The position numbers and the translations under genes were made by a program. Shown here in pieces: positions 9,443 through 12,899 of a DNA stretch of 16,744 nt. Under the pieces are notes generated by a model that worked only from the letters and a program-made list of their open reading frames with translations, searched no databases and was not told the DNA's origin. The stretch spans positions 1 to 16,744 of IMG/VR virus record IMGVR_UViG_2617270976_000015; one strand, 5' to 3'. This DNA comes from a virus. Taxonomy: Duplodnaviria > Heunggongvirae > Uroviricota > Caudoviricetes. Position 1 is the stretch's first letter. Every line of letters begins with the position of its first letter.

Positions 9443-9503
9443 CTTTACCCTCGCTTATCCACATAACTTATTGATTGCATTGATAACTAAAAAGATCGTC
9501 GAT

Positions 9504-9965: not shown

Positions 9966-10766
9966 TTACTTGATAAATCCTGCCGCCTTTCCCCGCCTGT
10001 ATTCCTCCATCAGCCACTGTGCCGGTGTTATTCCCCCCAATGTGGCGGCGTTAGGCATACACCCGAAACTTCGCCCTGGTGGATGGTAAACGTCTCTCCC
10101 TGTGTCCGGAGGCGTACTCATGGGTTCTGGCTTTGCCTGTATGCTGATCACCGGATCGGGTATCTGCTGTCCGGAAGCTACCTTTTTCGCCCAATCATCG
10201 AGCAGCCTGCGCGCGTGTTTCTCAACCTCAATCTCGCTAAACTGGCGCTGATACATTGCACGGCGGGTATCACATACGACCCAGTACATAACCGGATGTC
10301 GCCACGGGAATCTTTCGGGACCACCAGGATATAAACTTTTTTCCTTGCTGTACCGGTGAAACTCCGCCATCACATCGTCAATGGTGACGCCAAGAACCAT
10401 CTTGCTGTCTTTACACCACTTGATGAATTGCCCTGGCGACGGCCAGAACGGAGATTCACTGGCGCGGGCGTGGCGCATACCAGCAGAAACCTGTTCACGG
10501 GTTCGGATCCCCCCTTCGGCAAACGCAGCAATCCACTGCTGTTTTGCAGCAACTTCCTGCTCTGGAGTCTTCAGGTTGGTTACTACTGCCGCCGGAAACA
10601 GTTGTTTCAGCTGTTTGAAAAGGGCATCAACAAGCCTCTCTGCTGACATGTTCACCACATTGTCATTGTTGACGTACTGATGCTCATAACCTGACATGCG
10701 AGAAAGGGCTTCTCCGTCACGGTTTTGTATCGCGGTAAAAACGTTGTTCACAAGAAATCCTCCCAC
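9966..10766 (-). CDS. lambda P-like replication protein (DnaB helicase loader)
   Basis: Conserved block WIAAFAEGGIRTREQVSAGMRHARASESPFWPSPGQFIKWC parallels lambda P (…NGITTMEQVNAGMRVARRQNRPFLPSPGQFVAWC) as I recall it. Start taken as the GTG at 10766, overlapping the O-like stop; the start is uncertain. Confidence 0.8.
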   Translation of the reverse strand: MGGFLVNNVFTAIQNRDGEALSRMSGYEHQYVNNDNVVNMSAERLVDALFKQLKQLFPAAVVTNLKTPEQEVAAKQQWIAAFAEGGIRTREQVSAGMRHARASESPFWPSPGQFIKWCKDSKMVLGVTIDDVMAEFHRYSKEKSLYPGGPERFPWRHPVMYWVVCDTRRAMYQRQFSEIEVEKHARRLLDDWAKKVASGQQIPDPVISIQAKPEPMSTPPDTGRDVYHPPGRSFGCMPNAATLGGITPAQWLMEEYRRGKAAGFIK

Positions 10767-11563
10767 GCTTCAGGGCTGTTCCAGTGCGGAACGTTGTTAT
10801 CAGGTAATGTTGATTGCTTCTGTCTGCTAATCTGCAGCCGCCTTGCCAGCTTCTGCTCCCACTGTGCCTGATGGTATGCCTTACCCTCAGCCATCCAGTA
10901 AATTCTGAACTCTGCAAGCTCCTGTGCCGTTGGCAGACTGTCCAGGTAGATCCCCTGCAATGAGCTTTTCCGAAGAAAGTCATCTGATGGCTGCCATTGT
11001 TCATGCATGACAAATTTGCCTAATTGCCCTGGCCCACCAGGAGGAACAAAGTTATTCATCACGGCGTTGTTTGCGCCGGGGTCATGAGGCACAGAATCCC
11101 CGCTTTTTGTCCTGCTCTCCCTCTCTTGGTTAAATGACTGGTTATATGACTGGTTCTGGATCCCGTTTTTGGGATCATTCAACATCCCGTTTTTGGGATC
11201 ATTCAACATCCCGTTTTTGGGTATATTCCCGTTTTCGGTAACATTACCGTTTTCGGGTTCATTACCCCCTTCCCGGTTGCCTTTAATGTTTCCGTTTTTG
11301 GTTATATTAAGAGAGAAAACCCGCACTCTTTTCGTCGCACCCTTTCTCTCTCCGGTATCTGAAATAAGCCCCATTTTCATGAGCGATATAAGCCCGGCCT
11401 GCACGGTTTTTTTATTCAGGCAAGTGTCTTTAACGAGGCGTTCTATGCTGGGGTAGCAGAGGTTATATTCATCGGCTCTGTCAGCCATCGAGAGCAGTAT
11501 GAGCTTTAATGACGAGCTACCTGGATCTGTCTCCCAGGCCCAATCTGTTGCATGTCTGCTCAT
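10748..11563 (-). CDS. lambda O-like replication initiator (N-terminal HTH domain, internal repeat/iteron-encoding linker, C-terminal domain)
   Basis: ATG 11563 with GGAG RBS; N-terminal LKLILLSMADRADEYNLCYPSIERLVKDTCLNKKTVQAGLISLMKMGLI looks like a helix-turn-helix; the mid-gene tandem repeats encode NGMLNDPKNGMLNDPKNG; placed directly before the P-like gene. Confidence 0.7.
   Translation of the reverse strand: MSRHATDWAWETDPGSSSLKLILLSMADRADEYNLCYPSIERLVKDTCLNKKTVQAGLISLMKMGLISDTGERKGATKRVRVFSLNITKNGNIKGNREGGNEPENGNVTENGNIPKNGMLNDPKNGMLNDPKNGIQNQSYNQSFNQERESRTKSGDSVPHDPGANNAVMNNFVPPGGPGQLGKFVMHEQWQPSDDFLRKSSLQGIYLDSLPTAQELAEFRIYWMAEGKAYHQAQWEQKLARRLQISRQKQSTLPDNNVPHWNSPEAWEDFL
11161..11308. 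repeat. array of about 7 direct repeats (18-24 bp, core CCGTTTT(T)GG) inside the O-like gene; candidate replication-origin iterons
   Basis: Two perfect 24-bp units TCCCGTTTTTGGGATCATTCAACA at 11161-11184 and 11185-11208, then degenerate units to about 11308; a 10-bp direct repeat ATGACTGGTT x2 follows at 11133-11154. Confidence 0.65.
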
Positions 11564-11888: not shown

Positions 11889-11908
11889 AGACCGCCGGAT
11901 GGCGGTCT
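11889..11908 (-). terminator. GC-rich hairpin after the cro-like gene (tR1-position terminator candidate)
   Basis: Perfect 8-bp stem AGACCGCC / GGCGGTCT with a 4-nt loop, 22 nt after the cro-like stop; followed on the minus strand by UUUCAUAUCUAUU, a weak U-tract. Confidence 0.4.
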
Positions 11909-11929
11909 ACAGAGGGTTGTGGATGGATA

Positions 11930-12160
11930 TCATGAGTAGAAGAAGTATGCCAGTTCTGCTTTTGAGCGCAGCCATTGTCTTGTTTTACAGGCTTTAAAAA
12001 GCCCATTCATCAATACTTTACCTGGCATTTTGCGCTTACCTGTTAAGTGAGTCTGGATATAATGACTCGTCGTTCCGGCTTCCTGTGCGAAGGCTTCACG
12101 CTCATCCGGAGTAAGTGCAAGCCAGTGCTTTTTGAAATCGAAATGTCCGTTATCGCTCAT
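11930..12160 (-). CDS. Cro-like small HTH regulator
   Basis: 76-aa protein divergent from the repressor gene across a 154-bp operator region; segment EAFAQEAGTTSHYIQTHLTGKRK resembles the Cro/CI-type HTH pattern; first gene of the cro - cII-position - O - P series. Confidence 0.5.
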   Translation of the reverse strand: MSDNGHFDFKKHWLALTPDEREAFAQEAGTTSHYIQTHLTGKRKMPGKVLMNGLFKACKTRQWLRSKAELAYFFYS

Positions 12161-12314
12161 AGCTATTGCCTGATATTTATTTCAGATAATAAATATTCAC
12201 CCATAAGGTAACAAAAATCAAGGATAGTTACCTGTGGGGTGCATTTACCTATTGGGTAATATTGCTTTAAATTGAATCATCTACTGATTCATATATGAGG
12301 CGATTTTCCAGAAA
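12161..12314. promoter_or_regulatory. divergent promoter/operator region (OR-like) between the cro-like and repressor genes
   Basis: Contains TCACC-cataa-GGTAA (12197-12211), half-site GTTACC (12227-12232) and perfect TTACC-tattg-GGTAA (12245-12259); AT-rich promoter-like sequence on both strands. Confidence 0.6.
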
Positions 12315-12899
12315 ATGAAAAGTATCCAGGACGTCCGCAGGCAAAATCTCAACGACTTGATCGACCGTGAATTCAATGGTGTTCAGACGCGGATGGCTGA
12401 AAAACTTGGAACTCAGGCAAATCTGGTAAACCGCTGGGCTCTTGGCAAGAAGGTTATCGGCGACCAGGTTGCGCGAAAAATTGAAGCTGCCGCCAATAAA
12501 CCCCGTAACTGGCTTGATATCGATCGCTCGCTTTCTCAGGAAGGTTTTCAGCCTGTCGGCCCAAGCGACATTGGTCAGCTGGCGGCTCACAACCTGGAAC
12601 GCTGGATGAGCGAAAGCCGCGACCTTTCAACACAGGGAAAACTTCACCGCGCATCCGGCGTCGCCCAGGTGACAATCAGCCGCCTGTTAAACAATGAGGT
12701 CAGCGTTTCCATTTCCACCCTGGAGAATGTTGCATCTGCATTCGGGCGTCACGGATATGAACTACTGATTCACCCGCACGACCCTGCAACTATCAACTAT
12801 GACCGCTCGCGCTACGCATTGTTACCTGAAACCGAGAAAGCAAAGATCGAAAGTTACATTGAATTTGTCATCAACCAGAACGAAAAAAACAAACAATAA
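12315..12899 (+). CDS. prophage repressor (CI-like function), HTH protein without a recognisable S24 autopeptidase domain
   Basis: N-terminal HTH-like segment GVQTRMAEKLGTQANLVNRWALGKK and a second HTH-like segment ASGVAQVTISRLLNNEVSVSISTLENVASAF; divergent from the cro-like gene; flanked by the palindromic operators; I do not see the Ser/Lys motifs of LexA/CI-type C-terminal domains. Confidence 0.65.
   Translation: MKSIQDVRRQNLNDLIDREFNGVQTRMAEKLGTQANLVNRWALGKKVIGDQVARKIEAAANKPRNWLDIDRSLSQEGFQPVGPSDIGQLAAHNLERWMSESRDLSTQGKLHRASGVAQVTISRLLNNEVSVSISTLENVASAFGRHGYELLIHPHDPATINYDRSRYALLPETEKAKIESYIEFVINQNEKNKQ

Follow-up and report, generated by a model that had tools for sequence, protein, structure and literature searches.

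The window, that is, the whole stretch of 16,744 nucleotides that was analysed, carries on its minus strand a 271-amino-acid initiator gene (10748..11563), whose product combines an N-terminal HTH_36 winged helix, a linker encoded by repeats, and a DnaT-C-like domain. The gene immediately downstream (9966..10766, minus strand) overlaps the end of the initiator gene and encodes a lambda P-type helicase loader, as indicated by matches to Pfam Phage_lambda_P (PF06992, E = 2.4e-56) and PHROG 109 'P-like helicase loader' (E = 2e-91) and by the same naming in relatives. In one relative, PGAP placed the start of the loader gene at a position equivalent to ~10751. Upstream of the initiator gene, on the same strand, lie a small ORF and the gene for a 76-residue cro-like repressor (11930-12160, minus strand), the latter assigned through PHROG 35 'transcriptional repressor' and the phiV10 annotation. 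Divergent from the cro-like gene, a plus-strand gene (12315-12899) encodes a putative prophage repressor of 194 amino acids with two HTH regions, one YdaS-like (aa 21-61) and one of the HTH_3 type (aa 106-147). A consensus scan, the output of which was at chance level, marked a promoter-like site at 12214-12186 and a terminator-like hairpin at 11908-11889, both on the minus strand. Transcription from this upstream early region (11889..12214, same strand) would traverse the repeats. No tRNA genes were found in the window.

phiV10 and further epsilon15-like podoviruses match the region at 96-99% identity, and in a near-identical genome the phiV10-like prophage is flanked by an integrase gene and guaA. 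Of 5426 complete E. coli genomes, 422 (~8%) carry the initiator gene. The initiator/P module was also detected, at 96% identity, near the end of the 138-kb record of Escherichia phage BP9 (PP488543.1, 134380-136276), which is classed as a lytic Vequintavirus, yet carries a module of temperate-phage type; it is also present in the 115-kb unannotated record of phage PH444 (PP350014.1). Both records look like chimeric or contaminated assemblies.

The domain structure of the initiator was determined by profile searches and structure prediction. Pfam identified HTH_36 at aa 18-67 (E = 1.8e-10) and the DnaT DNA-binding domain at aa 184-252 (E = 1.2e-15), and the whole protein matched PHROG 1032 'replication initiation protein' (E = 1e-108). 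The C-domain matched the DnaT C-domains in the PDB (4ou6, 2ru8, and 6aep) at E values of ~1e-20. The N-terminal DNA-binding domain (aa 1-85; 11309..11563, minus strand), the presumed reader of the iterons, was modeled by AlphaFold2 as a winged helix (pLDDT 88.7) with the topology H-H-b-H-H followed by a beta-hairpin wing. A Foldseek search of this model against the PDB returned generic winged-helix regulators (TM ~0.6) and no specific replication initiator.

The initial annotation had called this protein O-like. Its layout is indeed that of lambda O, and a lambda P homologue follows it, but membership in the lambda O family did not hold, as the initiator matched neither Pfam Phage_rep_O nor TIGR01610, the latter of which recognizes lambda O itself at E = 5e-39. 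A BLASTP comparison of the initiator with lambda O found nothing, and hhalign aligned the N-domain profile with the lambda O N-domain at a weak probability of 13%; we do not claim demonstrated homology of the N-domain to lambda O on these results. PHROGs 678 and 345 were matched by both N-domains at overlapping profile positions, and HTH_36 has been assigned to the lambda O N-terminus by HHpred (Brezellec et al., PMC5509034). The two initiators thus appear to be only remotely linked.

The initiator is widely listed in databases as 'primosomal protein I / DnaT', and even the name 'pyocin large subunit' occurs. The names 'DnaT' and 'primosomal protein I' are misnomers, since just the C-terminal 70-85 residues resemble DnaT. 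We rejected full-length DnaT identity, as the NCBIfam DnaT equivalog NF002770 scored 85 bits against a cutoff of 201 and matched at profile positions 86-169 only. Database searches with the 90-residue N-domain retrieved mostly truncated fragments, and those with the full-length protein retrieved only near-identical E. coli proteins. Many family proteins in the databases (P0001-P0005, P0010, P0026, and P0032) are truncated or frameshifted at the repeat array, and one of them, P0005, reads the iterons as ...NPKTVMLPKTGIYPKTG. Assembly breaks, sequencing errors, or pseudogenes in this place may account for the pattern.

Between the coding regions for the N-domain and the C-domain, the initiator gene contains an array of direct repeats. 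The sense (minus) strand at 11160-11304 holds six exact copies of the core CCRAAAACGG and one decayed copy. Read on the plus strand as CCGTTTTYGG, the core occurs six times in the window, on this one strand only and entirely within 11163-11301. The chance expectation from shuffled sequences is 0.07, and none of 200 shuffles reached six copies. The tandem repeats that the initial annotation had noticed in the middle of the O-like gene are real, far above chance, and unique in the window. In gene order, the cores are spaced 45, 18, 18, 24, and 24 bp apart, and the decayed copy lies inside the 45-bp gap.

The array opens with a promoter-proximal iteron (11289..11304; sense TAACCAAAAACGGAAA), from which the next exact core is 45 bp away. 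The decayed iteron follows at approximately 11265..11277 (sense ACCGGGAAGGGGG); in close relatives, no other stretch of the array is as polymorphic. Next come two iterons spaced 18 bp apart (11244-11259 and 11226-11241; span 11226..11259), which share the core CCGAAAACGG and have weaker dyad arms. The array ends with three iterons at 24-bp spacing (11208-11223, 11184-11199, and 11160-11175; span 11160..11223), two of which are the perfect dyad ATCCCAAAAACGGGAT, while the third is TACCCAAAAACGGGAT; all of these elements are on the minus strand. The best two copies form a 16-bp palindrome, and the full 16-mer had no further match at up to 3 mismatches across the 16.7-kb window. Internal dyad symmetry, as expected of sites for an initiator dimer, takes the form ATCCC-N6-GGGAT, which is perfect in two copies, near-perfect in a third, and weaker in the distal copies.

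At 11160-11221, Tandem Repeats Finder counted 2.6 perfect copies of the 24-mer ATCCCGTTTTTGGGATCATTCAAC, its top-scoring array in the window (score 124), and at 11211-11266 it counted 3.1 copies of an 18-mer with 78% matches. Two perfect 24-bp repeats and about five degenerate repeats of 18-20 bp had been proposed at the outset. The perfect copies are present, but the 24-bp sub-array has three cores; the further repeats also exist, at a spacing of exactly 18 bp. Every repeat period in the window is a multiple of 3, and the translation ...PENGNVTENGNIPKNGMLNDPKNGMLNDPKNG... bears out the earlier description of a repetitive NGMLNDPK-type linker. Three GATC (Dam) sites fall within 45 bp at 11158-11201, because GGGATC is part of the proximal iterons; effects of methylation or SeqA on the candidate origin are conceivable.

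Directly past the last iteron, the minus strand carries 12-mer repeats at 11120..11156 (GAACCAGTCATAT / AACCAGTCATTT / AACCAAGAGAGG), a candidate unwinding element, after which the sense strand becomes purine-rich. Tandem Repeats Finder reported 2.4 copies of the 12-mer TGGTTAAATGAC at 11127-11155, with exact copies at 11132-11143 and 11144-11155. What had been annotated as a pair of 10-bp direct repeats at 11133-11154 is thus a genuine repeat with a different unit and copy number. The extent given for the whole feature (11133-11308) was right in location, and the actual span is ~11120-11309. The flank of the iterons is 57-60% AT, against a window background of 54%, its duplex stability lies ~1 sd off the mean, and its sense strand is 58% purine. 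By AT content and duplex stability, a classic strongly AT-rich unwinding element is not evident beside the iterons of the window. No DnaA box was found within 1.6 kb of the repeats.

A comparison of repeat number in related prophages had been recommended, and the number does vary. The architecture of the window is shared by 53 of 80 near-identical viral contigs; in the rest, the number of cores ranges from ~3 to 9 and that of the 12-mers from 1 to 3. Array variants in E. coli chromosomes differ by -24, +18, +24, and +36 bp, and the initiator proteins of relatives range from 263 to 311 amino acids. A comparison of 44 distinct haplotypes belonging to the same type as the window, from which one divergent 816-nt allele was left out, showed polymorphism at 1 of 60 core positions vs 8 of 54 positions elsewhere in the array. 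Variation is concentrated in the decayed copy, at gene positions 290-300. Polymorphism at third codon positions was no lower in the 16-mers (5/30) than in the rest of the gene (39/242), and the depletion concerns the 10-nt cores as a whole only. The choice of Asn codons was set aside as evidence: AAC is used in 6 of 6 cases in the cores, compared with 12 AAC and 8 AAT elsewhere (Fisher p = 0.13).

We surveyed 80 species-level genomes (one per species) that encode the N-domain, scanning them with an N-domain alignment. At least two sense-strand cores were present within 420 nt past the N-domain in 71 of the 80 loci. The core density in this interval was 0.0087 per nt vs 0.00008 outside it, an enrichment of ~100-fold, on one strand only; this figure is optimistic, as the core pattern was written after the survey loci had been seen, whereas the argument from reading frames is independent of that choice. 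Cores occurred in at least two reading frames in 53 of the 80 loci and in all three frames in 10, because the repeats there have 17-bp and 13-bp periods, with distal copies 17 bp apart. The same DNA motif is consequently translated as NSPKNG, TVPKTEQ, or SQKRN in different relatives, which indicates that the DNA, not the peptide, is under constraint. Since the periods in the window are all multiples of 3, the argument from frame independence rests on the relatives. Frame-independent conservation is the strongest argument for the selection that presumably acts on the DNA. Across variants, the flanks of the core showed dyad symmetry at 1.60 of 3 positions vs 1.16 under a null of shuffled pairings (z = 7.6, with independence overstated by kinship).

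Several arrangements recur among the surveyed loci. Loci L095, L111, L112, L116, L117, L125, and others carry 17-bp distal iterons (gene positions ~280-400) that pass through three frames per protein; L112 has 10 cores distributed across all three frames. Acinetobacter loci (L114, L119, L127, L132, L135, L140, and similar ones; gene positions ~340-440) have 22-bp repeats AGTCCCAACAATTCCATGAAAG in place of the 24-bp iterons. In this sub-family, the right half-site is altered, and the array closes with one full dyad, GTCCCAACGTTGGGAC, followed by GAATC 12/13-mers.

The flanking repeats are conserved as well. Past the last iteron, 65 of the 80 family loci have 2-3 copies of A-GAAYC-T-A-N-C-A-A-W-R at 12- or 13-bp spacing, and the AACCAGTCATWT 12-mers represent this element in the window. 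A spacing of 13 bp, which shifts the reading frame, occurs at least once in 48 loci. The flanks lead to an expectation of ~0.01 pairs of GAAYC 12/13-mers per equal length. In many relatives, a clear A-rich tract (70-78% AT) lies past the 12/13-mers.

We observed the array and the N-domain to be exchanged together among phages. The initiator of Edwardsiella phage GF-2 (NC_026611 34168-35010, corresponding to L003 1501-2343) is a mosaic, in which the N-domain and the iterons are of the window type and the C-domain is that of lambda O. The same N-domain is recognizable at 52% identity over aa 1-139, the gene contains a 24-bp repeat in 2.8 copies that includes ATCCCAAAATTGGGAT, and the C-terminal 144 residues are 62% identical to residues 156-299 of lambda O. 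The junction lies immediately past the 12/13-mer repeats, at the same place as the lambda origin and the annotated recombination points of lambda. Conversely, in the Uetakeviruses SPN1S and Tyrion, a different N-domain precedes the DnaT-like C-domain, and the motif is absent. Even in distant phages the repeats are inherited along with the N-domain, and they are missing where another domain has taken its place.

These features point to the repeats as the replication origin of a phiV10/epsilon15-like (Uetakevirus) E. coli prophage, lying within its initiator gene as ori-lambda does, and we regard this reading as very probable. The gene layout, the dyad half-sites, the co-inheritance with the N-domain, and the presence of the motif in several frames all argue for the iterons and candidate origin proposed in the initial annotation. 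For lambdoid and P22-like phages, origins are routinely inferred from repeats of this intragenic kind (PMC8022706). In the searchable literature, we found no description of the candidate origin and no binding or origin-firing experiments on the phiV10/epsilon15 phage group.

A mechanism of initiation can be outlined by analogy with lambda, our own observations being those of sequence anatomy and conservation; the general mechanism has been reviewed (PMC5043065). Derepression would start leftward early transcription, through which the initiator and the P-like loader would be expressed and the origin traversed. Dimers of the winged-helix N-domain would bind the six or seven 16-bp palindromic A-tract iterons (11160-11304) and wrap the DNA, and the resulting stress would open the adjacent 12-mer region (11120-11156). 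The DnaT-C-like C-domain may then recruit the P-DnaB complex or hold the opened strand, leading to the loading of the host helicase. The repetitive ...PKNGMLND... peptide would be a by-product of the DNA sites, serving as a flexible linker between the domains.

The same sites could have a mainly regulatory role as initiator-binding sequences, in autoregulation of the operon, in copy control or handcuffing, or in incompatibility or exclusion, with replication starting elsewhere in the prophage. Such a role would also agree with the dyad symmetry, the inheritance of the repeats together with the N-domain, and their conservation irrespective of frame, plasmid iterons have control functions as well (PMC5043065), and the flank in the window is not clearly AT-rich, which leaves room for an origin elsewhere. 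We nevertheless consider a primarily regulatory array unlikely. Neither a second cluster nor a single copy of the motif is present elsewhere in the 16.7-kb window, the early promoter region included; the position is exactly that of ori-lambda, with the GF-2 junction located where the lambda origin falls; and the iterons adjoin a conserved set of 12/13-mers resembling the unwinding elements of oriC and RK2.

Against the reading as an origin, perfect 24-bp copies and copy-number polymorphism are also expected from replication slippage in a tolerant linker, and the array could in principle be just that: a slippage-prone, low-complexity, Asn/Gly/Pro-rich linker that has no function as DNA. The variation from ~3 to 9 copies among near-identical prophages, with proteins of 263 to 311 amino acids, the perfect 24-bp copies, which resemble recent duplications, and the frame-preserving periods of the window all agree with this explanation. 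Periods of 17 and 13 bp, with two or three frames in use, are inexplicable as a protein-level repeat, though, and a linker without function as DNA is very unlikely also in that the dyad symmetry survives substitutions in the flanks, the 100-fold enrichment of the motif is confined to one position and one strand, and the cores are less polymorphic than the remaining array. An action at the RNA level, in which AUCCC-loop-GGGAU hairpins in the mRNA or antisense terminator-like hairpins tune the translation or transcription of the initiator, seems highly improbable. Each dyad could form a 5-bp hairpin, and the consensus scan marked two terminator-like hairpins on the plus strand (11170-11189 and 11194-11213), but the stems are very short, and such matches arise automatically from neighbouring half-sites (GGGAT...ATCCC) next to a T-run; they are probably a by-product of the iterons. 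Their number in the region (4, compared with 1.8 +/- 1.4 in shuffles) is near expectation, the distal copies keep the core without the dyad arms, and the co-inheritance with a DNA-binding domain would be left unexplained.

Taking the repeats as an origin, we tentatively suggest, as a possibility to which we give somewhat less than even weight, that the window belongs to a large family of phage origins that has so far gone undescribed and whose members occur in prophages of Enterobacterales, Vibrio, Pseudoalteromonas, Acinetobacter, Marinomonas, and some non-gamma Proteobacteria. Such a family would follow a fixed, frame-independent grammar within the initiator gene, consisting, in this order, of distal iterons at 17/18 bp, proximal 16-bp palindromes at 24 bp, and two or three GAAYC 12/13-mers. 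The 12/13-mers, not general AT-richness, might then be the sequence-specific element for unwinding or strand capture, comparable to the 13-mers of oriC and RK2, and the module might couple to at least three C-domains (DnaT-C, lambda-O-C, and others). Only the frame-independent grammar across the family and the conserved 12/13-mers are mildly novel, and conceptually the system makes no advance past the lambda paradigm. Its practical value would lie in predicting, to the nucleotide, the origin of a prophage type carried by ~8% of complete E. coli genomes, including phiV10, which is in use as an O157:H7 reporter phage, and in an annotation rule for the origins of related prophages, proceeding from the HTH_36 initiator domain to CCxAAAAxGG dyads and on to GAAYC 12/13-mers. 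The motif kept across frames would also be a clear case in nature of a protein linker whose sequence is dictated by a DNA site.

Iteron-containing plasmid origins (RK2, F, P1, R6K, and pPS10) and the 13-mers of oriC resemble the locus in that multiple initiator sites stand beside short direct repeats of 12/13 nt, the expected place of strand opening (PMC5043065). Plasmid iterons differ in binding Rep monomers, in being non-dyad and helically phased, and in usually lying beside DnaA boxes outside the rep gene, whereas the sites in the window are dyads at 18/24-bp spacing inside the gene, with the nearest DnaA-box match at 9455. We did not assign the locus to the iteron-type plasmid origins for these reasons; the dyad sites and the lack of nearby DnaA boxes fit the lambda type better than the plasmid type. 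With E. coli DnaT, the initiator shares homology to the ssDNA-binding C-domain over its C-terminal 70-85 residues, and its N-terminal two-thirds are unrelated.

A closer counterpart is DopC/DopE, an O/P-like pair that was domesticated in the chromosomes of Cellvibrionales and some Oceanospirillales (Brezellec et al. 2017, PMC5509034). Both pairs consist of an HTH_36 + DnaT-C protein followed by a Phage_lambda_P protein, and the pair in the window looks like the phage-type counterpart of this helicase-loading pair. According to the published report, dopC lacks iterons and does not act as an origin, although DopC shares the architecture and the P-like partner (PMC5509034). The window gene, in contrast to dopC as published, is located in a prophage by guaA and contains a full iteron array. 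We accordingly excluded it from the domesticated type, which is chromosomal, non-prophage, and iteron-free. The reported loss of iterons upon domestication fits a role of the iterons in the replication of mobile elements, and the window gene looks like the phage-type ancestor state of DopC.

The nearest known system is ori-lambda, equivalents of which are the origins in gene 18 of P22 and phage L (PMC8022706). As the initial annotation had stated, the iterons of lambda likewise lie inside O: four are annotated in the middle of the gene, ATCCCTCAAAACGAGGGAT and variants, spaced 20, 24, and 23 bp apart. The window has six or seven iterons at 18/24-bp spacing, compared with four at 20-24 bp in lambda, and each iteron is 16 bp long, compared with 18-19 bp, with a spacer 3 bp shorter. 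The initiators differ in that the window protein lacks a Phage_rep_O/TIGR01610 match and has a DnaT-C-like C-domain in place of that of lambda O, and the flank in the window consists of 12-mer repeats and is not strongly AT-rich. In both systems, the iterons lie within the gene of the initiator itself, separating the regions for the DNA-binding N-domain and the C-domain, and are dyads with ATCCC/GGGAT half-sites around a central A-run on the sense strand. A lambda P homologue comes next, and the array belongs to an early operon downstream of a cro-like gene. This lambda-like arrangement is expected and no surprise, and it extends to the exchange of the N-domain and the iterons as one module.
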